A stretch of 64,000 nucleotides of DNA. Source: Promethearchaeota archaeon. Lineage in GTDB: Archaea > Asgardarchaeota > Lokiarchaeia > Sigyniarchaeales > SOKP01. The stretch is from contig JAHLWP010000001.1 of assembly GCA_019057865.1 (NCBI GenBank), positions 96,001 to 160,000 on the forward strand, in the 5' to 3' direction. Below the pieces are notes generated by a model. The model made no database searches. It was not told where the DNA came from and saw nothing but the letters and a program-made list of their open reading frames with translations. Both the position numbers and the translations under genes were made by a program. Position 1 is the first letter of the stretch; each line of letters opens with the position of its first letter. Below, piece after piece: positions 3,858 through 46,669 of this stretch.

Positions 3858-4457
3858 GTGACTCGATATGAAGTCCGAATTTCTGGTTTTGGAGGTCAAG
3901 GTGTCATCACTCTTAGTAAGATGATAATTACAGCAAGTTCTTTATATGAAAATCTAGCAGCAACTCAAACAGAGGCTTATTCTTCTTCAGCTCGAGGAGG
4001 AAGATGCTGGGCAGAGGTAGTAATTGATTTAGATAAAGAAGTTAAAATAATTAATTACCCTAAAGCCTTAAAACCATATGATTTTCTAATAATTCTCTCT
4101 GAAGAATCCGCTAATCTCATTAAACCAGAACATATTAAAAAAGACGAAAGTACAGGATTTTTAATATGGGACCCATCAACAATCAAAAAATTTAGAGCTG
4201 TAAGAAGGATCGATAAAGCATTAAGTATTCCAGCTCAGAAGATAGCGGTTGAGAATTTTGGAAATATCGTTTTTGGAAATTCTATTCTTTTTGGGGCATT
4301 TACTATCCTTTCTGGATTTATTTCTGAAGAATCTGCTATTGAAACTATTAAAAATTTCGTGCCAAGTTCTACATTAGATAAAAATTTGGAAGCATTTGAA
4401 TTGGGGAAAAAAGAAGCTCAAGATTTTTTAAAACAATTAAAAGAGGGTAATGATTAA
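3858..4457 (+). CDS. korC: 2-oxoacid:ferredoxin oxidoreductase gamma subunit
   Basis: EVRISGFGGQGVIT, YSSSARGG, NLEAFELG. Confidence 0.9.
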   Translation: MTRYEVRISGFGGQGVITLSKMIITASSLYENLAATQTEAYSSSARGGRCWAEVVIDLDKEVKIINYPKALKPYDFLIILSEESANLIKPEHIKKDESTGFLIWDPSTIKKFRAVRRIDKALSIPAQKIAVENFGNIVFGNSILFGAFTILSGFISEESAIETIKNFVPSSTLDKNLEAFELGKKEAQDFLKQLKEGND

Positions 4458-25349: not shown

Positions 25350-26051
25350 TTAAGCTCTACCTAATCCCACATTGGCTTTAATATTTTTCCTAACCTTAAA
25401 ACCTTCTTCGGATAATAAATTTATAATTGGTATATCACCGTTTTCCATTATTCTAGTAATTATACCGACCGAAAATACAGTATCAATTTTCTTTTCAACT
25501 TCTCTTATAACGTTTAACACATCAGTGATTTTGCTATTATGAACCTTAAATTCAATTGTTGCCGAGAGAACTTTTTCATTTTTTATATCTTCTTTAATAT
25601 GTCCTTTATCATCAATTATAATTGCTGTAACAGGACTCTCTTTTTCATATTCTACTCCAATTTTTGATAGTTTTGTGGTGAATAATTCGATATTTCTGAG
25701 GTATGAGCCTACTCCAGGACGTCCTATTTCTATAGAGATTCCAATTTCACCGAGACTATAGCGATTAGTTACATCATTAGTTTTCATTTCTTCAGTCCCT
25801 CTCCCAGGTATTCCTGTTACTTTATGTGTAGTAATTACATTACTAAATGGACTACGTATAATACGAGGCCATTTTAGTCGTTTAGATCTTATTGCTTTGA
25901 CGGGACACTCAGCATCTCGATAACAAACAGCACATTCAACGCATTGATCTTGATTTATTACAGCTTTATTATCTATTAATTCTATAGCATGAACAGGACA
26001 AACAATAATACATTGTCCGCAACCTGTACAAACCTCTGTTTTTATCTCCAT
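25350..26051 (-). CDS. 4Fe-4S dicluster protein with uncharacterised C-terminal domain
   Basis: CTGCGQCIIVCP, CVECAVCYRDAECP; PGRGTEEMKTNDVT, EIGRPGVG. Confidence 0.8.
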   Translation of the reverse strand: MEIKTEVCTGCGQCIIVCPVHAIELIDNKAVINQDQCVECAVCYRDAECPVKAIRSKRLKWPRIIRSPFSNVITTHKVTGIPGRGTEEMKTNDVTNRYSLGEIGISIEIGRPGVGSYLRNIELFTTKLSKIGVEYEKESPVTAIIIDDKGHIKEDIKNEKVLSATIEFKVHNSKITDVLNVIREVEKKIDTVFSVGIITRIMENGDIPIINLLSEEGFKVRKNIKANVGLGRA

Positions 26052-26078
26052 AACTGTATCCTACAATAAGCCAATTTT

Positions 26079-27347
26079 TTAAGATTTCATAGATTTAATA
26101 TTTTCTATATCACGTGGAAGAAATTTTAAAATTGGAATTAGTAATAAAATACATGATAAAGCCATTATAGATAAAATAAAATATCCTGGACTATAATGAT
26201 TATTAAAAATTAAAAAGAATTGTCCAAGCAATAATAAACTTATACTTCGCCCAAATGTAATGGTTGCTAAGTAATTCAAAGAATAAATCGTTGATCTAAT
26301 TTGAGGAGGATTAATTTCTCCTAATGTTGCCTGAGTGAGAGGGTCAATTCCACCGAATAAGAATGCACCTACAAATGAAAGGGCTAAAAAAACAATAGCA
26401 ATCGATATTTCGTTTGATATAAAGTATAATGAATAGGCTATTATATAGAAAACGGATCCGCCTATGAGACAATATAAAACGATCTTTATCCTTCCATTTT
26501 TGTCTATTTCATATTTCTTATCTCCAAGTTTGCCAAATAATGGACCAGAAGGAACTTGACTTCCAAATACTAAAATCATGAAGAAGGTTGCTAATGTAGA
26601 GCTAAGATCATAATCTTTCTTAAGCATTGATATAAAGAATGAAGAAATTGCTCCAATAGATATGAACATGGCAAAATTAAATACCAATATCCAAAATGTT
26701 GTTTTAATTTTCCAAATTTGTTTGAAATCTTTTAATTTGACTTTATATCCTAATCCTAAAGCACTCTCATCAATTGTTTTATAAAGCTTATCCTTTGCTC
26801 CTCTTACTGGTTCTTTAACTAAAAATAATAAACCTGTGCATACAAAACCAAATATAGAAACAATTAATAGAGGCGTTTGCCATGTATAGTAATCAATCAA
26901 AAATCCTGAGAGCATTTGACCTAAACCATTGCCTAAAACATAAACAGCGCTTAAAACTCCAAATTTTTTACCCCGACTTTCAGCATCAACTAAATCAACA
27001 ATTAAAGAAAACACTAAAGGTAAAGCAGCACCAAATCCGATTGCTGCGATTATTTGAAATATTAATAATGAAAGAAAATCAGTTGATAATATTGTTAATA
27101 AGGTAAGAATTGACCATTCTAAGGTGCTTATAATAAGTAAATTCTTTCGTGAAAATTTATCCCCCAATAAAGCCCAAAAAAGTGAACTAATTGCCCCAAC
27201 CATTAAAAATATTGAATTTATAAAAACTACTTGGTTTTCCTCGAAATGTAGAGCACTTGAAATTTCTTCTGCCATTGGAGTTATAATGCTAAAAAGAGCA
27301 CTACTAAACAGCGTTAATAAAATTAAAATTTGAGTATTTTTCGGCAT
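26079..27347 (-). CDS. MFS transporter
   Basis: 12 TM; motif A-like LLGDKFSRK and GKLGDKK. Confidence 0.88.
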   Translation of the reverse strand: MPKNTQILILLTLFSSALFSIITPMAEEISSALHFEENQVVFINSIFLMVGAISSLFWALLGDKFSRKNLLIISTLEWSILTLLTILSTDFLSLLIFQIIAAIGFGAALPLVFSLIVDLVDAESRGKKFGVLSAVYVLGNGLGQMLSGFLIDYYTWQTPLLIVSIFGFVCTGLLFLVKEPVRGAKDKLYKTIDESALGLGYKVKLKDFKQIWKIKTTFWILVFNFAMFISIGAISSFFISMLKKDYDLSSTLATFFMILVFGSQVPSGPLFGKLGDKKYEIDKNGRIKIVLYCLIGGSVFYIIAYSLYFISNEISIAIVFLALSFVGAFLFGGIDPLTQATLGEINPPQIRSTIYSLNYLATITFGRSISLLLLGQFFLIFNNHYSPGYFILSIMALSCILLLIPILKFLPRDIENIKSMKS

Positions 27348-29992: not shown

Positions 29993-30095
29993 GGCCGGGT
30001 TCGTCTAGTGGTAAGGATTGGGGACTGTGAATCCCTAGAGGTTTAAGATCTATTCTATTACCGGGGAAAGACGGGTTCAATTCCCGTACCCGGCC
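29993..30095 (+). tRNA. tRNA-His(GTG) with encoded G-1 and a 30-nt intron in the variable region; CCA not encoded
   Basis: Acceptor GCCGGGT/ACCCGGC, D-arm GTCT-AGTGGTAA-GGAT, anticodon arm GGGGA-CTGTGAA-TCCCT (GTG 30027-30029), T-arm ACGGG-TTCAATT-CCCGT, G-1 (29993) and C73. Confidence 0.92.
30039..30068 (+). other. tRNA-His intron at position about 45/46 (relaxed BHB)
   Basis: Central helix CCCU/GGGG, bulges AG^A and AA^A, inner helix GGU/ACC; excision leaves a 4-nt variable region. Confidence 0.82.
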
Positions 30096-30247
30096 CTCCT
30101 TAATTTTTATTAAGACTCTATTTAATACATCATATTTATATGTACTTTTTATAATCAAGGTTTGAAAAATTGGAAAATTAAAATCAAAGCACTCATTTTA
30201 TTTAATCGCTAATTTGCAGTTACACAAAAGTTGAGTTATTTTAAATA

Positions 30248-30700
30248 ATGCTTTTAGAAGAAGATAAGCTTCGAGACATACCAGGTTGGAAAAAAGACGC
30301 TCCTATTCCAATTTGCATGGGCGGAGATTATCGTGCTTTAACTTTTTGTTGTAAAACAGGATATTCTTTAACTTTCAGTTTTAAGTGTAAAAGAGACAAA
30401 GTTTTAAATGAATTAAATCTTTCAGCAAAAGAGTTTATAAAAATTAAGGAGGATTTTTCTAAAAAAAACGGTTGGGATTCGGAAATTGTGTGTTTTGGCT
30501 CAATATCGTATTGTTGTATGAGACGTGGAGGTTGTCCTAGGCGTGATGTCGCTTTAAGCATTAGATATCCTAAAAAATCCAAAGAAGAATTTATGAGAAT
30601 TTACTTTCAAAAGAAGAAAGAGTTATCAAAAAGGATTTTAGAGAGTATTAAGAATTATAAAGGAAAGGAGAAAGTAAAACCTTACTTGGACTTGTTTTGA
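30248..30700 (+). CDS. Stand-alone methanogenesis marker 9-like Cys-rich domain protein
   Basis: WKKDAPIPICMGGDYRALTFCCK...C.RD...CFGSISYCC...CPRRD. Confidence 0.7.
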   Translation: MLLEEDKLRDIPGWKKDAPIPICMGGDYRALTFCCKTGYSLTFSFKCKRDKVLNELNLSAKEFIKIKEDFSKKNGWDSEIVCFGSISYCCMRRGGCPRRDVALSIRYPKKSKEEFMRIYFQKKKELSKRILESIKNYKGKEKVKPYLDLF

Positions 30701-30713
30701 AAAATCTATGCTT

Positions 30714-30995
30714 TTAGGATATAAACTCAGATTTTAATGATTTAAAAAGTACTTTATGCTCTTTCTTAGTTAAATCCTTAATCTTTTTCCCCCTTTTATG
30801 TAAATGATCAGGATTATCTATCATAAGTAAGTTCAATAGGAAAAGTAAACAATTTTTAGCTTTAAAATTATTATGATTGATTGAGAAATCATTCATTAAT
30901 TTAATCATATATGTTACTGTCCAAAGCTCTGAGAAACTTTTCGACCTATTAATATTATGATTATAAAAATCTAATATCTCGTCAAAGCAATCCAC
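30714..30995 (-). CDS. Hypothetical protein
   Basis: 93-aa ORF with GTG start; no motif. Confidence 0.5.
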   Translation of the reverse strand: MDCFDEILDFYNHNINRSKSFSELWTVTYMIKLMNDFSINHNNFKAKNCLLFLLNLLMIDNPDHLHKRGKKIKDLTKKEHKVLFKSLKSEFIS

Positions 30996-31180
30996 TTTTT
31001 ATCACTTATATATATTCCATTAGCAAATCTTAAAAGTTTTGTGGTTTTACTTCAAAGTTAAACTACTAAATTATACAGAGATTAATGAACATATTAATAA
31101 CTAATTAAATATGAAATTCCTTTTTGTCTGGAGAATTATAGGAAATTTTAAATAGTTGTTTTAATAAATATTTTCTTAAG

Positions 31181-31339
31181 ATGATTTTAGAGGAAGTTCC
31201 TTCACACCCATTCAGAGATGATATTTATATAAACTCAGTTATTACTCCTTATGATGAGGTTAAAAATAGCGATAAAATGATGGTTAAAAGGATCTTATTG
31301 AAAGAAATCGCTACAAAGGAGTTAAAAGTAATTGCATAA
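31181..31339 (+). CDS. Possible small ORF (52 aa) or remnant of a degraded gene
   Basis: MILEEVPSHPFRDDIYINSVITPYDEVKNSDKMMVKRILLKEIATKELKVIA fills an otherwise empty gap; below the ORF-track cutoff. Confidence 0.3.
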   Translation: MILEEVPSHPFRDDIYINSVITPYDEVKNSDKMMVKRILLKEIATKELKVIA

Positions 31340-31389
31340 TAATTAACTCCTTCTAAATTTTAAACCTATAAAAATAAAAAAAAAGAAAA

Positions 31390-32418
31390 TTATTTCTTAT
31401 TAATTCTTATAAAGATTAGAGGAAGTATATAAGTTAACACAAAAGCTATGAAAGCATAACGACCGAATCTATAAAAAACACTATTAATTTCTAGTAGATA
31501 CTCAAGTGGTATGAATATAGCCATTAGAATTACTAATCCAATAACTACATTAAGCAGTTTTTGTTTATTCCTCAACTCTTTTGGTTCATATTTAATGTAT
31601 TCATTTTCTAACAGATAGCCAACACCTAATCCTAATATTACTCCTCCTACTTGAGCAAATGCTCCAGCATCTGGGAAATGATCAACTTGATCTTTAGGTA
31701 CTAAACCTAATCCAGCTCTCGGAAATAATAAGGTTGGAATCACAAATAGTAAAATCGAAATAGTTATTGTTAATATTAGTTTTATTTGAAAACTAAGCTT
31801 ATTAAATTGTATAGTAAAGATTGGTTCTAAGTATATAAATAAGAGTAAGAATCCAATACCTATTAAGAGCCCTCCAATCACATCTTGAAGATCATGTACA
31901 CCATAGAACATTCTTGATATGGCCACAAGAAATATAATTACTGAGAGAATAACTGGTACGACAGGGATACCTAAAGGTTTAGGTTTATCTTTAAATTCAT
32001 TAGCCATATATCCCCAATAACATGTTGCATTTTGTGCATGACCTGATGGGAATCCATATGATGGTTCAATAAAGCCATAGTCTTCAGCAGGATCAATATT
32101 TGTATCTGGTCTTGTGTCTTTGGGTATTTCTTTTACCAAATGGTTAAAATAATATGAGAATAATATAGGTAAGATAGTCCTTTTAGCTAATTTCTTATCA
32201 TAACCTATAAATATGATTGCAGTTAAAATTACAAAAGTAATGGCCTCACCAAGATAGGTAATAGCTCCGAATATTGTCTGGATAGTAGAACTTTCACTAT
32301 AAAATTCTTCATTAAATCCTAAAGCATAAAGTACTAATCCTACAAGGAGAATAATTAGAGCTATAGCTCCAATGATGATTAATCCATTTCTAGATAAATA
32401 TTTTTCTTTTTCAGACAT
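31390..32418 (-). CDS. PAP2 family membrane phosphatase
   Basis: KxxxxxxRP, FPSGHAQ, SRMFYGVHDLQDV. Confidence 0.9.
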   Translation of the reverse strand: MSEKEKYLSRNGLIIIGAIALIILLVGLVLYALGFNEEFYSESSTIQTIFGAITYLGEAITFVILTAIIFIGYDKKLAKRTILPILFSYYFNHLVKEIPKDTRPDTNIDPAEDYGFIEPSYGFPSGHAQNATCYWGYMANEFKDKPKPLGIPVVPVILSVIIFLVAISRMFYGVHDLQDVIGGLLIGIGFLLLFIYLEPIFTIQFNKLSFQIKLILTITISILLFVIPTLLFPRAGLGLVPKDQVDHFPDAGAFAQVGGVILGLGVGYLLENEYIKYEPKELRNKQKLLNVVIGLVILMAIFIPLEYLLEINSVFYRFGRYAFIAFVLTYILPLIFIRINKK

Positions 32419-32570
32419 CTTAAAGATCCAAATTTTAATTAAATTAGATTATATTTGATAAAGATGATAATATAGTTAATAAAGATTAATATCTAATTTT
32501 TTCAAGTTCAATTGAACTTTATTAAAATTAAGTTCTTTCCTTAGTGTATTTTCTATTAATTATTAACTAA

Positions 32571-33206
32571 TTAATCAATCTTAATTTTTTTATGTTTTTC
32601 ATCAACTTTTTTGAGTTCAATTTCGAGGATACCATTGCTATACCTTGCTTTGGCATAATCTGAATTAATTGTTGATGGTAATTCAACTTCTTTATAATAA
32701 TGTCTATTAGCATTTTCTTTAGTAGAAATTGTTATACTATGAATTGTTGCTTTAAGTTCAATATCTTCTCGATCAACTCCTGGCATTTCAGCTATTACGA
32801 TAATAATGTCTTCTTCTTCATTGACTTCTACTAAAGGCTCTCTTTTTGATTTTACAACTGGTTTCCCAGAAGATGAGGTTGGTTCAAGATTTCCAAAAGA
32901 ATCAATCGTTGGTTTGCCATCAGGACCGATATTTATGTTAAAACCGTACATTATTGGAAAACCAAATTTTGATTTATTTTTCATAAATTCTTTTACAATA
33001 TCTTCTGGAGATAGATTCTGAAACTCTGGTGGGAAGCTTTTTGAAATTTTATTATAAATATCTCGAATTATATTTTTGAAATCCTTATGCTTAAACAATT
33101 TATTTGGGTCAATCATGAATCTACTTGGATCTTCAAAAAATTTGAAAAAATCAAAGGGTTCTTCTTCTTCTTCATTTTCGTCATCATCTTCATTTTTTTT
33201 AGGCAC
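32571..33206 (-). CDS. hsp20: Archaeal small heat-shock protein Hsp20
   Basis: YGFNINIGPDGKP.I..FGN, REPLVEV, AEMPGV, ARYSNGILEI; SD GGAGATGA. Confidence 0.92.
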   Translation of the reverse strand: MPKKNEDDDENEEEEEPFDFFKFFEDPSRFMIDPNKLFKHKDFKNIIRDIYNKISKSFPPEFQNLSPEDIVKEFMKNKSKFGFPIMYGFNINIGPDGKPTIDSFGNLEPTSSSGKPVVKSKREPLVEVNEEEDIIIVIAEMPGVDREDIELKATIHSITISTKENANRHYYKEVELPSTINSDYAKARYSNGILEIELKKVDEKHKKIKID

Positions 33207-33400
33207 TCTTTATCATCTCCTTAGTATTTTTGATTATCTTATTATCAAATAAATTTAATAGGTAAAATTATTAATTAAATATTATAATAGCTAGAAACTA
33301 AATAGATTATATGCTATTAAAAATTGTTTATGTTAATAAATTTAATTTATATCAAATAAAAATTAGATAATATCATAAAATCAAGAGGAAATCGAAACCT

Positions 33401-35233
33401 ATGTATAGTGAGCTGTCAGATGACGATAAAAATATGTATCTCGACGTCCTCCGAGAAGCACCAATCCTTCCCTTCTCAAATTTCGTCAGTAGGGGCAATA
33501 TCCCAGACCGTATTGATATAGCTAGACCTAGGAGCTATATAGACAGAGAAGTATATAGATTAGTGCGCCAGACTTACCGAGATCGAAGTAGCAGGTTAAT
33601 CCCTATCCTAGGATCAGCTGGAACTGGAAAGACCCACGCATATCATTCTTTCAAGGACAAGGAAAGAGAAAACAAAAAAAAAATGGAAAGTGCTATAGAA
33701 TCACAAGAGATAGAAGTAGGTCAATTAGAACCTGTAAATTGGACTATTGTTTATGTTCCAAGTCCTCCAGCAAGTATACGTGTCCTCCTTCATGTTTATA
33801 CTTGTATAATTGAAGAATGCGGACCTGAACTCTTAGACATTGTTTCTGAAAAATTAATTGAAAAATGGGGGGGTAAAAAAGCTGGATTGTTCCAAAAACC
33901 TAAAATTGATGAAGTAATACAAAAAGGAATTAGAGAATTTCCAGGTGTTTTTGCTGATTGTGTAAAAACATTAGTTACATATCAACTCGATAAGAACAAA
34001 AAAGCATTAGCAGAGAGATGGCTTCTTGGAGAAGATTTGCAAGATGAGGATTTAAGCGAACTTGGTATTAATTCTGTACTAGAGGAGGATGACACCTGTT
34101 TATCGATGATTAAAATTATCACGGAGAATTTAGATAGGGTTCTTATTCTCTATTTTGATGAAATTGAATCCCCATATAGAATGCTCGGAGAAGTAGCAGA
34201 GCGCAAATTCCTAGAAATATTAAAGAGATTATATAATGAAGTTAAAGGTCTTGTAATTACAATTGCAGTATTAAAAGAGATTTGGCCAAGAATTATTGAA
34301 ATTGCTGATGCTCCACTAAGATCACGAATGGAACCTGAACAAGATTTAAAACCATTTAGTTTAAACGATTTAAAAATATTTTTCTCAAAATCCATGGAAG
34401 CATTTTGGGAGGAAAATAACTTGAATCCTCCTTTATATCCATTATTTCCATTAAACGAGAAATTATTAGAAATGATATATGACAAAACGCAAGGTAATCC
34501 AAGAAATTCTATAAAACTATGTAGAAGATTTATAGATAAAGTGGTTATGGATGAAATGACTGTAGATGAACTTCTGAAGGTCGGTGCGGAAATTGTTGCA
34601 ACAGCTAGACCTCCAACTGAAGTTGAAGAAGAAGCAATAGACTTTTCAAAACCGAGAGAAATTATTAAAAAAACAATTGAAGACATTTTAGCTGAGGAGG
34701 AATATTCCATAGATGTAAATCCTCAATCTATTGCTGGTGCTACTTTAAAATGCATAAATATGATAGGAGAAGAAAAAGGAAAGAAATTCAAGACGCAAAT
34801 GGAATTTAAATTCAAGCTTGGAAAAAGAGCACAAACTTTAGCAGCTTTAATTCAAGCTGAAGGTAGAAAATGGGGTATAGAGATACCATCTATTAAAACC
34901 TTCGATCGAAGTGCGGGAGTAGCGGGATATTATGCAGCAAAACGATTAAAAGATGCAATTGATCAAAAAGCAATTGATGAAGCTTTATTAATTGTACCAA
35001 CTGGCAGTAGTGGAGTAAAATTTGAAAGTATTTTACAAAACAACCCCGCTATTCATAAAATTGAGTTAAACAATGAACTTGGGGAGAGGTTAATAGAAAA
35101 TGCATTGAAGTTCCCTACAGAAGAAGGTTGGAATATCGTAAAAATAATTTTTCCAGATATTGGTGAATATTCACCTCCCGCAGTTGAAGAATCATCCACA
35201 GAGGAGAATTCTTCTGACTCGGGAAATGACTAA
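33401..35233 (+). CDS. AAA+ P-loop ATPase with C-terminal alpha/beta domain
   Basis: Walker A GSAGTGKT, Walker B LILYFDEIE, Arg finger LRSRM, sensor II GNPR. Confidence 0.8.
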   Translation: MYSELSDDDKNMYLDVLREAPILPFSNFVSRGNIPDRIDIARPRSYIDREVYRLVRQTYRDRSSRLIPILGSAGTGKTHAYHSFKDKERENKKKMESAIESQEIEVGQLEPVNWTIVYVPSPPASIRVLLHVYTCIIEECGPELLDIVSEKLIEKWGGKKAGLFQKPKIDEVIQKGIREFPGVFADCVKTLVTYQLDKNKKALAERWLLGEDLQDEDLSELGINSVLEEDDTCLSMIKIITENLDRVLILYFDEIESPYRMLGEVAERKFLEILKRLYNEVKGLVITIAVLKEIWPRIIEIADAPLRSRMEPEQDLKPFSLNDLKIFFSKSMEAFWEENNLNPPLYPLFPLNEKLLEMIYDKTQGNPRNSIKLCRRFIDKVVMDEMTVDELLKVGAEIVATARPPTEVEEEAIDFSKPREIIKKTIEDILAEEEYSIDVNPQSIAGATLKCINMIGEEKGKKFKTQMEFKFKLGKRAQTLAALIQAEGRKWGIEIPSIKTFDRSAGVAGYYAAKRLKDAIDQKAIDEALLIVPTGSSGVKFESILQNNPAIHKIELNNELGERLIENALKFPTEEGWNIVKIIFPDIGEYSPPAVEESSTEENSSDSGND

Positions 35234-36153
35234 ACTTTATTAAAGAGTTCTTTTATTTTTTTATCTAATCTATATAATTCTTTTGCTAATTGAGTTGCAT
35301 TATGAGTACTTTTTTTTAATTCTGTTAAAGTTTTGATTAATTCATCTTCTTCAAAAGTATTAGAAAGATATAGTAATCTATCAATTGGTTCTGCTAAATC
35401 ACCATAAAGGTACAATCGATTACTTTCTAAATCGTTAAATACTTGTTCTAAAACTTTATAGAGATCCTCACGTTCTTTTATTAAATCAGGAAAATTGCCA
35501 ACTTGTTCTGCTTTATTTTTTAAAAATGAAACGATTTCCTCTTCTTGAATCTTTGCGGCAAGTTCAGCTGCTTTAAGGAAACTCCTTTTAGCCTTCTTAT
35601 AAAACTTTTCTGTTAGGAATCGTTCTCCAAGTCTTACTTCAGCAGATAATCTTTCAGGAATTTCTTCCCCCAAATCGATTAATTCTCTAGCTTCTTGAAG
35701 TTTTTCCTCATCTAATAATTGTTTAGTTTTCTCATTAATAGTTTCTTTCACGATTGTTGGTTCTTTTAATTTCTCCATTAGACTCAAAGCAGAATTTAAT
35801 GTTTTTTTAAGTACCTCGCTCATATTTTTTTTATCACTAGTGTAATTTTGAATAACTGATTCTTCGATTTTTTGAAATAAACTTTTTAATGAAATTAGGT
35901 CTTCTCCTTCTCTTAAAATAAAGCCTAAATAAATGTTGTCCTTTTGTAGAGATTCTGCATTTACCTTGCGGAAATAATAACGAATGTTTTCTTTTCTAGC
36001 AGTAGCATCCAAAAACTCTTTAACTTTATGCTTTTCAGAGAATTCCTTTAAAATATTGGGAGGGACTTTATCGTCTATGTCTAAGTAGTATTCAGCTAAT
36101 ATATTAGGACCAAAAGATGGGTCAATTTCATATAAAAAAATTGCACTTGGCAT
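35230..36153 (-). CDS. uDENN/longin-like N-terminal domain plus TPR-like helical region
   Basis: AIFLYEIDPSFGPNILAEYY resembles the hhhhxFDxxxGPxhxxxY start of uDENN/longin domains; YKKAKRSFLKAAELA is TPR-like. Confidence 0.55.
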   Translation of the reverse strand: MPSAIFLYEIDPSFGPNILAEYYLDIDDKVPPNILKEFSEKHKVKEFLDATARKENIRYYFRKVNAESLQKDNIYLGFILREGEDLISLKSLFQKIEESVIQNYTSDKKNMSEVLKKTLNSALSLMEKLKEPTIVKETINEKTKQLLDEEKLQEARELIDLGEEIPERLSAEVRLGERFLTEKFYKKAKRSFLKAAELAAKIQEEEIVSFLKNKAEQVGNFPDLIKEREDLYKVLEQVFNDLESNRLYLYGDLAEPIDRLLYLSNTFEEDELIKTLTELKKSTHNATQLAKELYRLDKKIKELFNKV

Positions 36154-36284
36154 TTTTCTTATTCTTCCTTCATTTTGTTTTCGTAATTAATTTAATATTA
36201 TAGAGTTAATATGCTTTTGATTTTAAATTTTTATTTGATCTAAATAATTTAGGTAATATCTAAAATAAACATAGGTGGTAAATA

Positions 36285-37202
36285 ATGGCAACTGTTGAAG
36301 ATATTTATTGTGAAGCTTTTGAAGGCTTAGTAGTACAATTACAAATCACAGCTCAAGATCGAGAATTTTTAAACAGAGCAGCAAATGCATTTACTGCTCT
36401 TCCTTCCACGGTTTTTGGAGATGCTGAAGGTGGAATAGTTAGATGGCTTACAGAAAAAGAAACTATTGATGGTAGACCAGGAGCAATTGTACAATTATGG
36501 GTTACTGGTACTGGCAAAAGATCTCATGCAAAATTTTATGATCAATTAGGAAGAAGGATAAGGCAAGGTATTCTTGTTGTTCCTACCACCGCAGTTTTCG
36601 ATTACTTTCCTAAGGATGTTGATACTAAATTCAATATGATGAGTAATGTAGGACACTGTGGTGATGGATATGAATGGATTGTAGAAGAGTATAATCGTAA
36701 ACTAATTAATGTCCCTATTATGATGGGATATGACTTTCTAATTGAAGAGGAACTTTCATATGCGAAGGGTGTTATGGGAGGCAATTTGTGGCTCTTCTGT
36801 GATTCTGTAGATTCTAGTGTAAAAGTAGGACGAGAAGCAGTAAAAATTATTACAGAAATTGACGATGTTTGCACTACATTTGATATATGTTCTGCTGGTT
36901 CTAAACCTGAAACAAATTTCCCCGAAATTGGACCATCAACAAATCATCCTTATTGTCCAACTTTAAGAAATAAATTACGATCAGAAGAATTTAAAGTTCC
37001 TAAGGGAGTAGAATCAATTCCAGAAATAGTCTTCAATGCTCTTAATATTGATATTGTGAAGGAAACAATGTTAAAAGTAATTCAAGGGATAATAGATATG
37101 GATGGTTTAATAAAAATCTCATCTGGAAATTATGGAGGTAAGTTAGGTAAATATAAAATCCATTTACGAGAATTAGAATTAAATAATAAATATTTCTATT
37201 AA
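36285..37202 (+). CDS. ftr: Formylmethanofuran:tetrahydromethanopterin formyltransferase
   Basis: VEDIYCEAF, DGRPG, VPTTAVFD, CGDG, GVMGGN, SAGSK, STNHPYCPTL, GNYGGKLG. Confidence 0.92.
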   Translation: MATVEDIYCEAFEGLVVQLQITAQDREFLNRAANAFTALPSTVFGDAEGGIVRWLTEKETIDGRPGAIVQLWVTGTGKRSHAKFYDQLGRRIRQGILVVPTTAVFDYFPKDVDTKFNMMSNVGHCGDGYEWIVEEYNRKLINVPIMMGYDFLIEEELSYAKGVMGGNLWLFCDSVDSSVKVGREAVKIITEIDDVCTTFDICSAGSKPETNFPEIGPSTNHPYCPTLRNKLRSEEFKVPKGVESIPEIVFNALNIDIVKETMLKVIQGIIDMDGLIKISSGNYGGKLGKYKIHLRELELNNKYFY

Positions 37203-37210
37203 AGAGATCT

Positions 37211-37879
37211 TTATATTAAATCTTTATAATTTTCTACTTTTTGAAAGCCTGCGAGATGTTTCCTATACATTTCATATTTTTCTTCGAATACTTTATCAAT
37301 ATCATTAAGTGGTAGATCAGCATGAGTCCCTCTATCTCCGACATATTCTCCAAATTTGTTTCCATTGGCATCATAGGGAGGAAAAACAGCATCATTCTCA
37401 CCATCAAATTCAACCATTGGAAGAAATCCTCCTCTTATAGCAGTTTGTTGATCAAATGAAGGTGTTAATTTTACCCACTTATTGTCTAAATAAAATTCAC
37501 TATATCCATGGTAGTACATGACGTTGTGGCCCATATAATCAATAACTTTTTGGGAAACAAGGTGATTGATAAGGTCACATAAATGAATCCGTGCAGGTAT
37601 CCCGACTGCTCTAGCCAATGTTGATAATAATATAGATTTTGAAACACAAAAACCTTCTCGTCGGTGTATTGTCTTGCTAGCCATAAAATAATTTTTCACT
37701 TTCGGGACAAACAATGCCATGTTATATTTTATTTCATCTCTTACCCAATAGAATAAAGCAATGGCTTTTTCCTTTTGACTCTCTAAACCATTAGTAATTT
37801 CAATTGCTTTATTCATGACAGATTTTTTATTAAAATCAAAAAATTCACTAGGCAGTAGATAAATACTTAAATCCTCCAT
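37211..37879 (-). CDS. Transglutaminase-like cysteine protease family protein (copy B)
   Basis: LFYWVRDEIKY, GFCVSKS, ARAVGIPAR, HGYSEFY. Confidence 0.88.
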   Translation of the reverse strand: MEDLSIYLLPSEFFDFNKKSVMNKAIEITNGLESQKEKAIALFYWVRDEIKYNMALFVPKVKNYFMASKTIHRREGFCVSKSILLSTLARAVGIPARIHLCDLINHLVSQKVIDYMGHNVMYYHGYSEFYLDNKWVKLTPSFDQQTAIRGGFLPMVEFDGENDAVFPPYDANGNKFGEYVGDRGTHADLPLNDIDKVFEEKYEMYRKHLAGFQKVENYKDLI

Positions 37880-37937
37880 ATATAGTAAAAAAAAGGGTGG
37901 TTCTTAAAGATTTTTTTAATTAAAAATAATGTATTTT

Positions 37938-38588
37938 TTACTTTCTATTAAGAGTTTTAATCCCTTTTTCAAATACATATTTGTAATATTTCTTTCTTAT
38001 AACTCGATCCATCTCATCATAAGGAAGTTCAGCATATACTCCTCTATCTTTGATGTATTCAATGAAGAGTTTCCCTTCAGGAGTGTATTTAGAGAGAATT
38101 CCATCATGCACCCCATCAAATTCTACAAGTGGTAAGAAACCTGCTCTTTGGGCGGTATTTTTATCAAATACAGGGGTTGCTTTTACCCATTTATTATTAA
38201 TATATATCTCACTATATCCATGATATAAAAGAATGTTCGTTCCTAAAAGATCGATTGTTTGTTGAGGTACTTTATTATTCCTAATATCTGCTAAATGAAC
38301 TTTTGCGGGAATTCCAACTGCTCTTGCAAATGAAGATAATAAAACTGCTTTTGAAACACAGAATCCATAACCTCTGCGTAAAGTTACACTTGCTTTGAAA
38401 TTTGATTTAATCATATAAAATGCACTCATCATATACCTAATTTCGTCTCTTACCCAGTAAAATAACGCTATAGCCTTTTCTTTATCGGTTTTTAAACCTT
38501 CAATAATCTCAAAGGCTTTATCACTTACTCTCTTTTTATCAAAATCGAGAAATTCAGTAGGTTGTAAATAGTTAGTTAGATCTTCCAT
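37938..38588 (-). CDS. Transglutaminase-like cysteine protease family protein (copy A, tandem paralog)
   Basis: Same motifs as its neighbour: GFCVSKA, ARAVGIPA, HGYSEIY. Confidence 0.88.
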   Translation of the reverse strand: MEDLTNYLQPTEFLDFDKKRVSDKAFEIIEGLKTDKEKAIALFYWVRDEIRYMMSAFYMIKSNFKASVTLRRGYGFCVSKAVLLSSFARAVGIPAKVHLADIRNNKVPQQTIDLLGTNILLYHGYSEIYINNKWVKATPVFDKNTAQRAGFLPLVEFDGVHDGILSKYTPEGKLFIEYIKDRGVYAELPYDEMDRVIRKKYYKYVFEKGIKTLNRK

Positions 38589-38640
38589 GATTATTAAAAA
38601 TTAAGATCATTTTAGAAAGTTTTTAAATATAAGTAAAAAC

Positions 38641-39789
38641 CTATTTCCTCCCGTTACCCCAAAAATTATATTTACCACGGCTTAAGATATGTTTCGGATC
38701 AATTGTATCTTTAATCTTTTTCATTAGTTCATAATAACCTTTCTGATAGCCTTGAATATTTACCATATGTCTACTCAGAATATCGCCAAACATATAGAAC
38801 ATTGCTCCATGCTTAATTAGTCTTTCTAAAAGGGATTTCCAAAGCTTAAGATTAATTTCTTTAATATTTTCATGCTTTTCACCATTATAATAGCTTGGAA
38901 AACTAGTAAATCCACAAGTTAACTCAATATTGCTACCTTCAGTTAATATAATTGGACCTGTGCCTGTAATTGGTCGCATTCCAGTTATCTCTAAAATTTT
39001 TTGCATGTCTTCAGAGTGTTCAATATCCCATTGATCTAAATCTTTCATGATCTTAGGATATGCATTAATAGGTACATGACATTCTGCATCTACAGGATCA
39101 AATCCAGGTATTAATCCCCATAAGTTGTGCGCTATTAACCAGTGTCCCTGTTCTTCATAATGCCATTTAGCTATATTTCCATCCGAGATTTCTGGGCCAA
39201 ATTCTTCTGCTTTTTTACCTAATATTATTTTATCTAGTTGTGTAACTTTTGCTTTTAGTTCTGTTTCCGAGTTTGCTTCAACTGTATAAAAAATTACAAC
39301 CCTTTTTCTTTTTAAATGTTCCCACATAGGAAACATTCCATATTGAATCCCAATAGATACAATTAAATCCATGAAATACATAGTATCATAAACATCAATT
39401 CCATTTTGCCTAATTTCAGTCATAATTTGAGCTGCTGTTTCAGCAGGTTTACAAGGCATTAAGAATGTTTTGTACTCTGCAAATTCTGGTTTAGGAAATA
39501 CTTGTAGAGAAACTTTTGTTTTTACGCCAAAGATTCCATTATCCCCACAAAAAAAACCTGCTAAATCAGGACCATTTCCAAATCTATTGAATGGTAATTT
39601 TGAATATTTATTAGCCTGAGAACCAGTTTCAATTATTTCTCCTGTTGGTAAAACTACTTCTAAAGAAACTAATTGGTTAGTACAAGGTCCATACTTGGCG
39701 CATCCACCACCTCCTACAGAATGATGAGAGAGTCCTCCTCCTACTGATGAAGTTAATCCAGATCCTGGACCCATGCATCCTATATAGAG
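38641..39789 (-). pseudogene. FAD-binding (GlcD/Dld-like) oxidoreductase copy 3, 5'-truncated
   Basis: Homology to copies 1 and 2 starts abruptly at LYIGCMGPGSG (39789); the roughly 125 N-terminal residues containing PRGGG are absent. Confidence 0.8.
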
Positions 39790-40034
39790 TAATGTAATAA
39801 TGGTTTTATATCTTCAATAATATGATGTGGTAGTACCTCTGGTTTGTGTTCTGCGATCACACTAATAATATAAGAGCTGGGAATGATGAATTCTTGATCA
39901 CTAAGTAATATCATTAAATTATCTAATAGCCTAGATGCATTTAGAAAACGATCTTTAGAAGAAAGTAACTTATTACATTTTGAAACAAGCGGCAACAAGG
40001 AAGGGTAATTTTTGAAATGATCAGTATTTAACAT
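39780..40034 (-). pseudogene. N-terminal fragment of a helical-repeat (HEAT/ARM-like) protein, cut at the junction with FAD copy 3
   Basis: Amphipathic helices SYIISVIAEHKPEVL; its stop lies inside sequence homologous to FAD copy 3. Confidence 0.45.
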
Positions 40035-40407
40035 CTTAATTACAATGAATGTGAATTCATTATAAAAAGCGCTATAAATAATATAAGTGCTAAACCATTC
40101 TCGATTTTTTGTGGCAGTGAATTAGAAATTCATTTCTTTCAGGCTGAGTATCTGAGAGACGTTTGGTTTTAAGCGCGTCTTGTAATTTTGCTTGACATGA
40201 TAATTCTTTAACTGCATTTTCTTTACTAGTAGCGTTACCTACAAATCGTAATATTTAAAAGATATGAGGGCGAACATTTATATTATAAAGCAACAATTAT
40301 ATCAGTATACCTTAATTTTTTTAAGTAGCGTATAACAATTAATTCTATATAAATTATTATTCTAACTGTATCTAATGGAATCATAGATCACTCACATAAG
40401 GTGACAT

Positions 40408-42093
40408 ATGAATAAAAGAAATGTTGTAGTATGGATTCTTGTAGCGGCATTGGTTATATCTGGAATCAGTAATATTATTCTAGTTATAAACTATCCTCAA
40501 CCTTCCACTTCACGGGATCCTGACACACTTGTAGTGGGAATTGCATATAATCCATACACACTAGAAATTGTAAATACAAGATTCGGTCGGGATCACGTAT
40601 CAAATAATATACTTGGACAAATAGTGGAAACTCTATTTACAAATGATTTAACGGATCCGAAATTACCACGAATTAATCTATTAGCTGAATCTCATTGTTG
40701 GGAAAACACCACCACGCTTCACATCAAGCTACGTGAGGGTATTTTGTTCCAAGATGGGACTCCTTTCAATGCTACTGCGGTAAAATGGAATTTCGACCGG
40801 CTTCAATATCTTATCAATGCCACAGGAACAAATGCTGGAGAAGTTGCAGATACTCGTTCTTTATGGATGCGCCCCAATGAGAAAACTCCTATAATAAACA
40901 ACACGGCTATTACAGGTAACTATAATATCACACTCACCCTAAATGGCGCCTATGGTCCTTTTCTAAGTATGTTAACGAATATTAACACTGGAATGATTTC
41001 CCCAACCACACATATGAATGATACTTCCAGATTTATCAGTTTAAATACAGAAAATCTGGTGGGGACGGGTCCGTTTATCTATGGACATTACATTCCAAAT
41101 GTGGAAGTCGTCTTATCGAGATGGGAAGGGTATTGGAGTCATATAGCATACTTTAACAGACTACAATTCGCTATTTTTAGACCTGTTTCGGTGCTAAGAG
41201 ATGCAATGCTTCATCATCAAATCGACTACCTTATGCATTTTGAAGATGAATTCATCCCTGCTTTTGAAGCGGATGAGAGTATAATTCTAAAGAGATTTAC
41301 TGATGATACAGGCTTGCCCGGCTTAAATTACGGTTTATTGGAGTTTAATACCATTCATCTCAACGAAACATGGAGAAAAGCATTGAGCTATGCGATTAAT
41401 TATAGTTATATATTTAATGAAATGAAAGAGGGATGGGATCGAGGCACATCTCCAATTTCTCCATCGTTTGGAGCTTTATACAACACTTCCGTGAAAACTC
41501 CAGAATACAATATTACAAAAGCACGGGAAGTCATGGTATCAATGGGGTTTGGTGATATGGGATGGTCTGATGAACAATGGATCACTTCTATATTTGCTGA
41601 ACTTGGATACTATCCTTATTATTATAGCTATTTTGAGCATGAACTCAAAGAAAAGTTATTAGAATGGTATAGATTAATAGGCGTTTCTTTCTGTGGTTGG
41701 TGGGCTGTTTATCCTTTTGAAGCGTTTGAAGCATTAGATTTTTACTGGATGGGAGACGCACCAGATTTTTTTGACCCCTTTTCTATGTTATATCGGTTGA
41801 ATAACTATGAATATCTAATTTTCAGTTTTGATTGTGTGACTTATTATGTTCCTCCATTAAATGATACTTGGATTAATATCAAATTGGAACTCGTCTTAGA
41901 AACCATTGATGATGAAGCAAGAGATGAGATATATAAGGATGTTCAATGGTATTTTGCTGAGAAGCTATATCCTCATGCATTTGCATGGCATCCAAAAATA
42001 TTCTTTGTGCATTCTGCCGACCTTAGAGGTGTTCCATATAATGCAATGGAAAAATTTCAAGGAAATGTTCTATGGAGAGCAGATAATCTATAG
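40408..42093 (+). CDS. Peptide/nickel ABC transporter solute-binding protein (family 5), orphan
   Basis: N-terminal TM anchor; LREGILFQDGTPFNATAVKWNFDR, VGTGPF, WRKALSYAIN; many NxS/T sequons. Confidence 0.9.
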   Translation: MNKRNVVVWILVAALVISGISNIILVINYPQPSTSRDPDTLVVGIAYNPYTLEIVNTRFGRDHVSNNILGQIVETLFTNDLTDPKLPRINLLAESHCWENTTTLHIKLREGILFQDGTPFNATAVKWNFDRLQYLINATGTNAGEVADTRSLWMRPNEKTPIINNTAITGNYNITLTLNGAYGPFLSMLTNINTGMISPTTHMNDTSRFISLNTENLVGTGPFIYGHYIPNVEVVLSRWEGYWSHIAYFNRLQFAIFRPVSVLRDAMLHHQIDYLMHFEDEFIPAFEADESIILKRFTDDTGLPGLNYGLLEFNTIHLNETWRKALSYAINYSYIFNEMKEGWDRGTSPISPSFGALYNTSVKTPEYNITKAREVMVSMGFGDMGWSDEQWITSIFAELGYYPYYYSYFEHELKEKLLEWYRLIGVSFCGWWAVYPFEAFEALDFYWMGDAPDFFDPFSMLYRLNNYEYLIFSFDCVTYYVPPLNDTWINIKLELVLETIDDEARDEIYKDVQWYFAEKLYPHAFAWHPKIFFVHSADLRGVPYNAMEKFQGNVLWRADNL

Positions 42094-42256
42094 AAATCTT
42101 TTTCAAATGTTATAAGAACTCTCCTTTTAGTATAGTTTGGTACTTTGGATCTCGTTTATGAAAAGATATTTTCGTTATATAACTTAACTTTTTTTTTATT
42201 CATTTTTCCATATTGATCGATGAGTCATAATAATATATATCATAATATGATTATCA

Positions 42257-42349
42257 TCATAAATCTTTCTGCAGTTATGGATAATTTCCAAAACCTATAC
42301 AGGAGAATATGGCTTGCCATTCTTTTTTTAAATGTTTCAATTCAGTCAT
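42257..42349 (-). pseudogene. Remnant of Fe-S oxidoreductase copy 2: exon 1 plus BHB intron, exon 2 lost
   Basis: MTELKHLKKEWQAIFSC is 13/17 identical to copy 1; starts 1 nt after the FAD copy 2 stop, as in unit 1. Confidence 0.85.
42267..42296 (-). other. 30-nt BHB intron in protein-coding remnant (intron B)
   Basis: UC|CUGU|AU^A|GGUUUUGGA-AAUUA-UCCAUAACU|GCAG|AA^A|GA. Confidence 0.78.
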
Positions 42350-42350
42350 T

Positions 42351-43868
42351 TTATTTTTCACCCCAAAAATTAAATTTTCCTCTACTTAATATCATTTTTG
42401 GATCTAAAGTTTTTTTATTTGATTTCATTACATTATAATACTCTTCTGAATATGCTCCGATATCAACCATAACACGAGACATATAATCTCCCATCATGTA
42501 CCATTGTACACCATGCTCAGTAACTCTTTTCAACAGAGATTTCCATAGTTTTATATTTATTTCATCGATAATTTTATGGGCTTCTCCATTATAGAAACTC
42601 CAGAAACTAGTAAACCCACAAGTAATTTCTACATTAGTTCCATCTATTAATAGAATTGGACCACTTCCTGCAATACATCTTATTTTAGTAATTTCAAAGA
42701 TTTTTTGCATATCTTCTTGATGCTCAAAATCCCATTGATCAATATCATCTAAGATACTAGGATATTGTATTATAGGACTAAAACATTCGGCTGTGAGAGG
42801 TTGTATAGTAGGAAAGATTCCCCATAAATTATGATAGAATTGCCAATGTCCTTGTTCAGTATAATGCCATTTAGCGATATTCCCATCTGATATTTCAGGT
42901 CCTAGTTCTTCACTTTTATTTTCCACCATAATCTTATCTAATTGCCTTATCTTTTCGTCTAGCTCTTTTTCAGAATTTGCTTCTATGGTATAAAAGATCA
43001 TACCTCTCTTTTTTTTTAGATCATCCCATAATGGCAAAAATTTTTCTTGCGTCCCAAATCTCACAAGCAGATCCATAATATACATTAAATCATAAACATC
43101 AATTCCTTTTTGTCTAATCTCACTCATCATCTGAGCAGAAATTTCAAGTGAGTTTCGAGGCATTAAAAATGTTTTATAACCAGCATATTCAGGTTTAGGA
43201 AAAACTTGCAGTGAAACTTTTGTTTTTACTCCAAAAATTCCATTATCACCACAAAAAAGTGCAGCTAAATCAGGACCATTTCCAAATCTATTAAATGGGA
43301 ATTTTGAATGTATATTTGCTTGAGATCCTGTTTCAATGATTTCACCAGTTGGCAAAACAACTTCCAATGAAACTAGTTGATTAGTACAGGCACCATACTT
43401 AGCACATCCACCACCACCTACTGAATGATGAGAAGGTCCTCCTCCTATTGATGATGTCAATCCAGATCCTGGACCCATACACCCTGTGTAAAGCCCAAAA
43501 TGACATAAATATTCATTTAGTTTACTTCAAGAGATACCAGCTTCCACAGTAACTATTAAATTATCTATATCCAAATTCAATACTTTATCCATACTTTTTA
43601 GATCTAAGACAATTCCAGTATCTCCAATAGGTTTACTCCCTCCAAACTCACAGTCTCCACCACCTCGAGGGATAACTGGTACATTCTTTTCATTGGCAAT
43701 TTTGAGAATATATGAAATTTCTTCTGTAGTTTTAGGACGTATAACAATATCAGGAACACCTTGAAGATTGGAAGTAACATTCCGGGAATAAGCGTGTCGA
43801 ACATATAAGTCATTAGATATCCTATTTTTGGACACTATTCTTTCTAATTTCTGGTACAATCCTGACAT
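42351..43868 (-). pseudogene. FAD-binding (GlcD/Dld-like) oxidoreductase copy 2 with a single in-frame TGA at a conserved Trp (43527-43529)
   Basis: ORFs 43527-43868 and 42351-43478 share a frame: EAGIS*SKLNEYL versus EAGISWGKLNEYL in copy 1; 1518 nt. Confidence 0.85.
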
Positions 43869-43887: not shown

Positions 43888-45150
43888 TTATAGTTTAGAT
43901 GCAATTAGGTCAATTATATCAATAACTTTAATTTTTTCTTTGATTTCTGGCTCCATTTCTTCATAAGCATTGCTTAGATTTCCGATGCAAAAAGGACAGC
44001 TAGTAGTTAAGATTTGTGCGCCTGATTCAACAGCTTCTTTTATCCTTTCTTGTGAGATTTTAAGAGCTAATTCAGAGAATTGACTCTTCATACCTCCCCC
44101 CGCTCCACAACACCAAGCATTATTTTTATTTCTTTTCATTTCGACTAATTCAATTCCAGGTATTTTAGAAAGAACTTCTCGAGGGATTTCATAAAGATTC
44201 ATATGACGTCCTAAATGGCAGGGATCATGATAAGTGACTTTAACTCTTTCCATCTCTTCTTTAAAAGATATTTTATTGTTATTGATTAATTCCACCAATA
44301 TTTCTGTTATGTGTTTCACTTCAAATGGTAATTCATAGCCTAGTAATTCAGGATAATCTTTTTTCCAAGTTCTATAACATCCTGCGCAAGCTGTAAATAA
44401 GGTTTTAGCACTTTTATTTTTGAATTCATCAATATTGTGCTTAATCATTTCAGTTATAGATTTTTCATCACCAATCCTTATAGCAATAGAACCACAGCAC
44501 CACTCATCTTTAGACATTGCAATTTCTATTCCTGCTGCTTTCAATATTTTCATCATGCTTTTTAGCGTTTCTACTTGTCTTAAGGGCATGGTACACCCTC
44601 CAAAAAACATTAAGTCTCCCTTTTCCTTAATCTCAGGAAATTCCTTTATCCAATCAAATTTTTTATCTTTATCTTCTCCATAAGGATTCTTCATATTATC
44701 ATCGTTCATATACTCGATTAGATCACCATGTCCATCCAGAGGAGCAAAACCAGCCTCAACTAGATCCTTTCTTAATGCTTCCCATACTTTTACATGATCG
44801 ATCCAATTGCTTGTGGGAAGAACAATATATGGATTCTGAGACATATGGCAAACCTCAGTACAATTCCCACATTCGCTGCATTGGTAAACCCATTCAGCAA
44901 GTTCTCTACTCAAAGGAATTTGACCTTCTAAAATGCTCTTGAGAACATTCATTCTTCCCCTTGCAAAATATATTTCAAAACCTTCCTCTTCCTTAGCTTC
45001 CAATACAGGACATGTTAAATATCTACCAACAACAGGTCGAATGGCATACCCACAATCTCCGCAGCCCAAATATAGATTCCAGGAGCTCTAGAACCTTATA
45101 CACGACATGACCGCTTTCCATTCTTTCTTTAAATGTTTCAATTCACTCAT
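43888..45150 (-). CDS. HdrD/GlcF-like Fe-S oxidoreductase (4Fe-4S dicluster plus two CCG domains), split by a 30-nt BHB intron; 410 aa after splicing
   Basis: Exon 1 45150-45098, exon 2 45067-43888; spliced SCMGCGDC...CP, CSECGNCTEVC, WCCGS, TACAGC, YHDPCHLGR, CCGAGGG, TSCPFC. Confidence 0.85.
45068..45097 (-). other. 30-nt BHB mRNA intron (intron A) containing an in-frame UAG
   Basis: GUC|GUGU|AU^A|AGGUUCUAG-AGCUC-CUGGAAUCU|AUAU|UU^G|GGC; ligation gives UGU AUG GGC UGC. Confidence 0.82.
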
Positions 45151-45151
45151 T

Positions 45152-46669
45152 TTATTTTTCACCCCAAAAATTAAATTTACCTCTACTTAAAATCATATTT
45201 GGGTCAACAGTTTTTTTGATTGATTTCATTAAATTATAAAATTCTTCTGAATAAGCTCCAATATCTACCATGAAGCGAGACAAAAAATCACCCATCATAT
45301 ACCATTGTACTCCATGTTTTATTACCCTTTCTAAGAGAGATTTCCATAATTTTATATTTATTTCTTTGATGATTTCATGGATTTCTTCATTATAATATCT
45401 CCAAAAGCTGACAAAACCAGTTGTTATCTCAACATTATTACCGTCTACTAGAGGAACGGGACCACTACCTGATATAGGACGAGTTTTCGTAATATCAAAT
45501 ATTTTTCGCATATCTGCTTCATTTTCTATATCCCATTGATCAACATCTTGCAAAATTTTGGGGAATGCACTAATTGGGCAAAAACATTCAGCTGATAAAG
45601 CTTGCATTGAAGGAAACATTCCCCATAGATTATGATACAATTGCCAATGTCCTTTTTCAACATAATGTCATTTAGCAATATTTCCATCAGATATTTCTGG
45701 ACCTAAATTTTCAGATTTTTTATTCAAAATCATATCATCTAATTTCTTAACATTTTCATTTAATTCAACTTCAGAATTTGCTTCTATAGTATAGAAAAAC
45801 ATTCCTCGCCTACGTTTTAAATGTTCCCATAACGGAAAGAATCCTTGGTCTGATCCTATAGCAACCACAACATCTGGAATAAACATCGCATCATAAACAT
45901 CAATTCCCTTTTGTCTAATTTCATTCATAATCTGTGCTGCTGTTACAGCAGATTTACGAGGCATTAAAAAAGTTTTATATTCTGCAAATTCCGGTTTAGG
46001 AAATACTTGTAAAGAAATTTTTGTTTTTACACCAAAGATTCCATTATCCCCACAAAAAAGACCTGCTAAATCAGGCCCATTTCCAAATCTATTGAATGGT
46101 AATTTCGAATATTTATTGGCCTGAGAACCGGTTTCTATTATTTCTCCTGTTGGTAAAACTACTTCCAGAGAAATTAATTGGTTAGTGCAAGCACCATATT
46201 TAGCACATCCTCCTCCACCAACAGAATGATGAGAAATACCCCCACCTACTGATGCACTCATCCCAGAACCAGGTCCCATACACCCTGTATAGAGTCCAAA
46301 ACGGCACAAATATTCATTTAGTTTTCCCCAAGAAATTCCTGCTTCAACTGTTGTTATGAGATTATCTTCATCTAAATTAATAATGTTATTCATTCTTTTC
46401 ATATCTAAAACTATACCCCCATCTCCAATAGGTTTGCTTCCACCAAATTCGCAAATACCAGCTCCACGAGGGATAACAGCTATATTCTCTTCATTGGCAA
46501 TTTTAAGGATTTCTGAGATTTCTTTTGCATCTATTGGTCTTATAATAATATCAGGTACTCCTTGTAAAACAAGATCAACATTTCTGGAATAAGCATGGCG
46601 CACATAAATATCATTTGAGAGAAACTCTTTTGATACTACTTTTTCTAACTTTTTGTAGACTTCTGACAT
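45152..46669 (-). pseudogene. FAD-binding (GlcD/Dld-like) oxidoreductase copy 1 with a single in-frame TGA at a conserved Trp (45668-45670)
   Basis: GNIAK*HYVEKGHW versus GNIAKWHY in copies 2 and 3; 1518 nt, the same length as copy 2. Confidence 0.85.

Follow-up and report, generated by a model that had tools for sequence, protein, structure and literature searches.

The bulge-helix-bulge (BHB) intron of the cbf5 pre-mRNA in Crenarchaeota is 16-44 nt long, patchily distributed and associated with a heteromeric EndA; the known examples make up a single family that arose once and has since been lost in places, and splicing has been proven (Watanabe 2002; Yokobori 2009, PMC2738675). Here, we describe BHB introns in another coding sequence, an HdrD/GlpC-like iron-sulfur (Fe-S) gene of a Promethearchaeota archaeon of the Lokiarchaeia, and ask whether one of them, intron B, is related to an intron in a tRNA-His gene of the same region. 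Both lie in a stretch of 64,000 nt, hereafter the window (assembly GCA_019057865.1, contig JAHLWP010000001.1, positions 96,001 to 160,000), and coordinates are those of the window unless a contig or locus is named. The interrupted position, which we call the hdrD-like site, resembles cbf5 in that a short coding-sequence BHB intron, too short to encode a nuclease, sits patchily at a conserved functional motif in a host with a heteromeric EndA. It differs in that around 30 distinct inserts of several families occupy the one site, that sister alleles differ, that flanks travel with the intron, that some introns are stacked in pairs, and that the host is an Asgard archaeon. Moreover, splicing is proven for cbf5 whereas the introns of the hdrD-like site are known from DNA sequence alone. 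The literature searched, with incomplete coverage, held no report of BHB introns in Asgard coding sequences, cbf5 being the only archaeal coding sequence with such an intron there.

Introns of tRNA and rRNA genes provide the other comparisons. The tRNA-His intron of the window is a non-canonical 45/46 BHB intron, and its likeness to an intron at another site was raised as a sign of movement, as in the Thermoproteales (Fujishima 2010, as reported in PMC4090602 and PMC4033280). According to the sections available of a 2026 census (bioRxiv 10.64898/2026.10.13.758758), 28% of Thermoproteales introns belong to families of at least 80% identity spanning tRNA types. Unlike these transposed families, the cross-class pair studied here is 63% identical and has no further copies, and it fails as a transposed family of this type. 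For Asgard tRNAs the same sections describe many recent gains of intervening sequences at BHB-forming sites and little copying between genes (inter-tRNA copying 1.5% against 0.6% in shuffled data, chance matches being common at 70%); the census covers tRNA genes, to which the hdrD-like site adds mRNA introns, co-transfer of flanks and stacked introns. Finally, the hairpin-only (<50 nt) introns of Thermoproteales 16S rRNA are co-converted along with a nearby intron that encodes a homing endonuclease and spread in this way, with an example in Pyrobaculum (PMC4496867, Jay and Inskeep 2015). These are, like ours, short BHB hairpins at fixed conserved sites that spread between lineages at the same site with flanking DNA, but the host here is an mRNA and no endonuclease-coding intron was found at or beside the site in 96 alleles.

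We propose, with a probability of roughly 0.7, that intron B and the tRNA-His intron represent separate site-specific families, that intron B is mobile by conversion between alleles of its own site, and that a second intron is stacked upon it. The elements concerned are:

29994..30095, + strand: tRNA-His(GUG) gene (Rfam RF00005, 48 bits), a perfect cloverleaf once 30 nt are removed
30039..30068, + strand: BHB intron at position 45/46 of the tRNA, belonging to a family of 30-nt introns specific to that site
42297..42349, - strand: 5' exon of a truncated second HdrD/GlpC-like Fe-S copy (copy B; 17 codons + 2 nt), 87% identical to the copy-A region
42267..42296, - strand: intron B, a predicted 30-nt BHB intron that interrupts the codon for Met in C-M-G-C-G-D-C (its BHB fold is canonical, z -2.3)
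42246..42266, - strand: first 21 nt of a putative second, stacked intron (31 nt if complete, from the contigs of runs X3 and X8); the gene is cut here

The hdrD-like site was examined in 96 alleles. An insert occupies one and the same nucleotide in 32 of them, always breaking the frame, while the remaining 64 are intron-less; the 3' exon is open in all 30 insert-bearing alleles where this could be assessed. Among the single inserts, a 4/4 central helix is present in 20 of 21, and changes on one strand are compensated on the other. Orthologues of intron B (23-28/30) precede an intact exon at nine loci of two genera (L093, L094, L228, L229, L234 and L354-L357, where L### denotes loci or alleles; they include relatives G055 and G063 and four genomes of the other genus, G### denoting genomes). 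The host genome itself (4.26 Mb, 29% GC; G000) encodes an EndA of two subunits and one RtcB, and from the BHB geometry and the presence of these genes we infer that EndA would act as heteromeric cutter and RtcB as joiner for both intron B and the tRNA-His intron. The features of an archaeal BHB intron are therefore present: the central helix, exact intron-less alleles with a restored RNA and frame (B's own gene being truncated), and the EndA and RtcB machinery. Judged by its fold and its orthologous alleles, intron B is a genuine mRNA-type BHB intron, kept in the host genome in a pseudogene.

The earlier note on this DNA, made from the letters of the window, had counted 19 identities in 30 ungapped positions (63%) between the tRNA-His intron (30039-30068, +) and intron B (42296-42267, -), and had proposed an intron family shared between tRNA and mRNA. 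The count is exact, and the 9/5/9 arm-loop-arm register it described is recovered in the BHB folds of both introns, each with a 4/4 central helix formed with the 5' exon and with an intron helix of 3 bp in tRNA-His and 4 bp in intron B. The shared family, by contrast, found no support. The tRNA-His intron belongs to a 30-nt family that is spread through the genus and exactly absent in three genomes (G008, G021, G049), and all its relatives sit at site 45/46; all relatives of intron B sit at the hdrD-like site. Identity among B introns is 23-30/30, against 18-20 for B introns and the host tRNA-His copy and 15-18/30 for the family average, and in G055 and G063, which carry both families, each intron is nearer the kin of its own site. 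Profile and identity scans revealed no third member in the host genome, the genus or viral contigs. The core pattern of B matched exactly in the genus only at the hdrD-like site, and the inexact matches inspected were not intron-like; the candidate third members (C28, C26, C71 and C42) lie within uninterrupted open reading frames (ORFs) and were discarded. No cross-class pair reaches the 80% identity between different sites used for Thermoproteales. The note had also grouped three introns by length and a common start. All three are indeed 30 nt long; the third, intron A of the neighbouring Fe-S copy, is identical at merely 5/30 positions to the tRNA-His intron and 10/30 to intron B, so that the common start is no sign of kinship.

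How unusual is a match of 19/30? We compared 53 intron sites of 28-32 nt from the genus (42 tRNA, 11 mRNA). The boundaries of the tRNA introns were curated by index and doubtful ones dropped, a few in the null set possibly being off by 1-2 nt, and the approximately 11 mRNA sites are only a sample, drawn from comparison with a 0.8-Mb sample of G006; this comparison replaced an intrinsic genome-wide scan for BHB motifs that join ORFs, which barely exceeded its decoys (77 candidates vs 74 and 74). Exactly 30 nt is the modal length (26/53), and length is therefore no mark of a family. The 351 cross-site pairs of 30-nt introns average 9.8 identities (sd 2.9). The shuffles proposed by the earlier note put the match beyond composition (P 3e-5 by mononucleotide shuffle, 0.001-0.002 with the ends fixed) and make it a mild outlier once structure is kept (P 0.01-0.05), and the top score among 126 mRNA x tRNA pairs is 19 or more with a probability of 0.14. 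The family pair ranks 26th of 1378, or 107th once exon-paired positions are removed, and some other mRNA x tRNA family pairs score above it (best 67%). The likeness is thus probably one of shared design, and not the trace of a move from tRNA to mRNA: both introns would be built on the common BHB mini-intron of about 30 nt of this lineage, and 19/30 would lie in the upper tail of what that design yields through the 9/5/9 register, the bulge A's, the G's forced by exon pyrimidines, the double-counted helix arms and AT bias. The earlier note had itself suspected that BHB constraints and AT bias force part of the identity.

The strongest rival is that both introns descend from one ancestor, through an old move between tRNA and mRNA after which the central-helix bases were re-fitted to the new exon. 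Several observations weigh on its side and against the separation of the two families. The match of 19/30 is the joint maximum of the 351 pairs, and unrelated introns commonly reaching about 60%, which the earlier note had named as what would overturn kinship, were not found, only 2 of these pairs reaching 19. Outside the last six bases, 16/24 positions agree. Shuffles that preserve the pairing register raise the expected identity to 12.5-13.6 and still leave a P of 0.01-0.04 for the pair and 0.05 at the family level. The mRNA x tRNA pairs at 60% or more number 7 against about 2.7 expected (P 0.015-0.04), an excess that the shuffles leave unexplained. Three single introns of the hdrD-like site (L011, L092, L243) also score 18-20 against the tRNA intron, the two introns are 12 kb apart, and movement of introns between tRNA genes has been published for Thermoproteales (PMC4090602 and PMC4033280). 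On the other side, 63% is far below the 80% criterion, and in the census matches near 70% are commonly chance and Asgard inter-tRNA copying is rare (bioRxiv 10.64898/2026.10.13.758758). The consensus of the tRNA-His family agrees with B at 16/30 positions, fewer than the local copy does, the opposite of what common descent predicts, although a consensus depends on sampling. Together with the missing third member and the loyalty of each intron in G055 and G063 to its own site, this makes a common ancestor doubtful. What survives of the earlier proposal is that B is a genuine and apparently mobile mRNA-type intron with an above-average likeness to the tRNA intron; movement between the two gene classes is not supported and is probably not real in the form proposed. 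A wider scheme, in which the 30-nt BHB hairpins of Lokiarchaeia belong to a single mobile pool with access to tRNA and protein genes alike (B and the tRNA-His intron being old relatives), home between species without an endonuclease while co-converting flanks, and re-insert at their own junctions to yield ordered twin mRNA introns, is in our opinion unlikely as a whole.

The mobility of intron B at its own site is indicated by several lines of evidence: (i), on the tree of the 3' exon the intron state is patchy, differing even between sister alleles whose distal identity is 91-99%. (ii), A-type and B-type introns turn up again in clades far apart and in both genera, and where the third codon positions of two hosts agree at only 46-60%, their B introns are still 80-100% identical. 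(iii), in independent pairs of sister alleles, and with BHB positions excluded, the divergence of the flanks (-45..-10 and +6..+30) in excess of that of the distal exon is 0.137 in 12 pairs discordant for the intron vs 0.032 in 11 concordant pairs (P=0.001). (iv), all 32 intron alleles have TCN as the Ser codon that precedes the Cys, and this codon switches between AGY and TCN, which needs two substitutions, in 9/12 discordant vs 0/11 concordant pairs; the switch follows the intron state and flanks therefore travel with the intron. (v), in its last 30 exon bases copy B most resembles intron-bearing alleles from other clades, whereas at the upstream glcD end it is nearest to its own clade. (vi), L228 and L247 share 98% of the distal exon and 96% of the 5' flank, yet their introns agree at 21/30 positions, as if one intron had been replaced by another at the site. 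These allele comparisons point to same-site horizontal spread with co-conversion of the flanks, as in a homing intron. The simplest reading would be gene conversion carrying the intron and about 30-60 bp of flank between alleles, so that the intron would be copied into intron-less alleles of the same site in a homing-like manner.

Two points weigh against this. TCN also supplies pairs of the outer helix, so that selection could enrich it among intron alleles, and discordant pairs alone give no direction, whether gain or loss. All inserts in the 96 alleles are 30-63 nt long and none is an endonuclease-coding intron, though a long version could escape the searches; the 14 LAGLIDADG_3 matches of the host genome lie elsewhere, none being tied to the hdrD-like site. 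An alternative is a single ancient intron that was inherited vertically, never moved horizontally and was lost many times, for instance when spliced RNA served as the template for conversion. A loose hairpin style is common to many introns of the site, loss by conversion has been proposed for cbf5 (PMC2738675), and strong structural selection could hold the B sequence conserved. Loss through a gene's own mRNA would, however, leave the flanks as they were, whereas here they differ and the two-base AGY/TCN switch tracks the intron state; and vertical inheritance fits poorly with near-identical hosts that carry different introns, such as L228 and L247. We consider purely vertical descent quite unlikely, and retain gene conversion between alleles as the preferred reading.

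The site holds a further peculiarity: most B alleles carry a second predicted intron exactly at the 3' splice site of B. It is 26-32 nt long, and nine loci as well as the X3/X8 contigs show it directly behind B or, in one of these loci (L237), behind a more distant B-like intron. Its central-helix strand makes 3-4/4 pairs with the last bases of B, the two changing in step. With the exon the same strand makes only 2-3/4 pairs, of which 0-1 are Watson-Crick, and the whole insert taken as one forms no BHB. The four bases of B have two possible partners, the exon and the second intron, but can serve only one at a time, and complete splicing should therefore need the downstream intron to leave first; while the pairing is computed, the order, second intron before B, is deduced from it. 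Ordered splicing is familiar from multi-intron pre-tRNAs such as tRNA-Pro of Thermofilum pendens, where one BHB is processed before the next becomes usable. Unlike in that tRNA, the two introns abut here with no exon between them, the same four bases are contested by both, and they reside in an mRNA. In L355-L357 the second intron starts like B at 9-10 of the first 15 bases, which suggests that it is probably a local duplicate of B.

Similar introns inside one gene occur elsewhere. The tRNA-Leu(GAG) gene of G006 (C1, ~2722520-2722670, in L159) has three introns, the first two of which are identical at 21/30 positions, the best pair of the identity comparison, and are probably a local copy. In the host genome, one coding gene (C49:5259-6160) contains four BHB inserts, two neighbours being 68% alike.

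The copy of B in the host genome is a decayed remnant, as far as contig comparison tells. It lacks its 3' exon and is thus a truncated pseudogene, in which excising B alone restores no protein. In contigs of two other studies (runs X3 and X8) the host sequence continues for 9 more nt and then enters the normal 3' exon; the junction of the second intron rebuilt from them forms a 4/4 helix with the 3' end of B and splices to CMGCGDC, which places the cut in the host copy within the second intron. Further contigs agree with the truncated copy at every position, and the truncation is therefore real. That B would be decayed CxxCxxC codons rather than an intron, and its likeness to the tRNA intron pure chance, is a negligible prospect that we rejected: the unspliced copy does read C-I-G-F-G-N-Y, which is motif-like, and the gene is dead in the host genome, but the same sequence (26-28/30) is inserted before an intact G-C-G-D-C exon in relatives and the X3/X8 contigs carry this very sequence on into a 3' exon. 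Truncated second Fe-S copies are also seen in G063 (L117:1690-1730) and G041 (L115:2750-2810), broken at or just past the intron site, and that of G063 has an A-like intron at the break; rearrangement may be unusually frequent at this site.

Copy B belongs to a tandem duplication of an operon with an Fe-S and a glcD-like gene (46672-45092 vs 43871-42292, 77% identity):

45098..45150, - strand: 5' exon of the HdrD/GlpC-like gene, copy A
45068..45097, - strand: intron A, predicted as a BHB intron of 30 nt; it contains an in-frame TAG and shares the site of B but not its family
43888..45067, - strand: 3' exon of the HdrD/GlpC-like (CCG + 4Fe-4S) gene, copy A, open frame
45152..46669, - strand: GlcD-like FAD oxidase, copy 1; one TGG>TGA at 45668-45670 breaks the frame
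42351..43868, - strand: GlcD-like FAD oxidase, copy 2; one TGG>TGA at 43527-43529 breaks the frame

Introns A and B both interrupt the CxxCxxC motif, and they fall at the same nucleotide of two paralogues because of this duplication. Intron A is exactly absent in the sister genome G012 (96% amino acid identity), and 34-nt introns related to it are found at L245, L246, L248 and L250. In relatives, Trp stands at both glcD positions that read TGA in the host genome. With a single TGG>TGA at a conserved Trp in each tandem glcD copy, the reading frames indicate that the glcD/Fe-S operon is decaying in this genome. Recoding of TGA as the source of both stops was considered and found unsupported given the Trp of relatives, other rows with W against TGA looking like antisense shadow frames.

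A third glcD-like paralogue, 5'-truncated and about 74% identical to the other two, lies at 38641-39790 (-), and a solute-binding-protein gene in the opposite orientation (40408-42093) stands between it and them. Further along, 37211-38588 (-) holds two tandem paralogous ORFs (68% nucleotide identity over ~500 bp), transglutaminase-like by eye, and a match to Rfam PYLIS_3 (mttB) at 77-176 (+; 49.6 bits) suggests an mttB-like trimethylamine methyltransferase gene at the start of the window.

Other inserts were seen in the course of this work. Many relatives' tRNA-His genes have a second 30-nt family in the T-loop (L036-L053) and some an insert in the D-loop, neither of which is present in the host gene. 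Coding-gene inserts of 29-31 nt were confirmed against orthologues or a paralogue on contigs C13, C37, C4, C57, C65 and C7 of the host genome and near ~2599625 in G006. In the host genome, the D-loop insert of a tRNA-Arg(UCU) (C80, near 4396-4510) consists of short tandem repeats of exon, and a Glu(UUC)-like tRNA (C77, near 25973-26115) apparently has C rather than U at position 33 in this parse.

In the 2026 census, the route by which Asgard introns arrive is called 'the central open problem' (bioRxiv 10.64898/2026.10.13.758758). The hdrD-like site offers a handle on it, with dozens of near-identical alleles that do or do not carry a 30-nt intron, a two-base codon marker and a stacked intron. 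If true, the move of an intron from tRNA to mRNA would be new; support for it is weak here, however, and the pattern points instead to allele-to-allele conversion and local duplication. Splicing order and homing both become directly testable at this site. Moreover, genes of Lokiarchaeia that have the look of pseudogenes may in many cases be intact and spliced.

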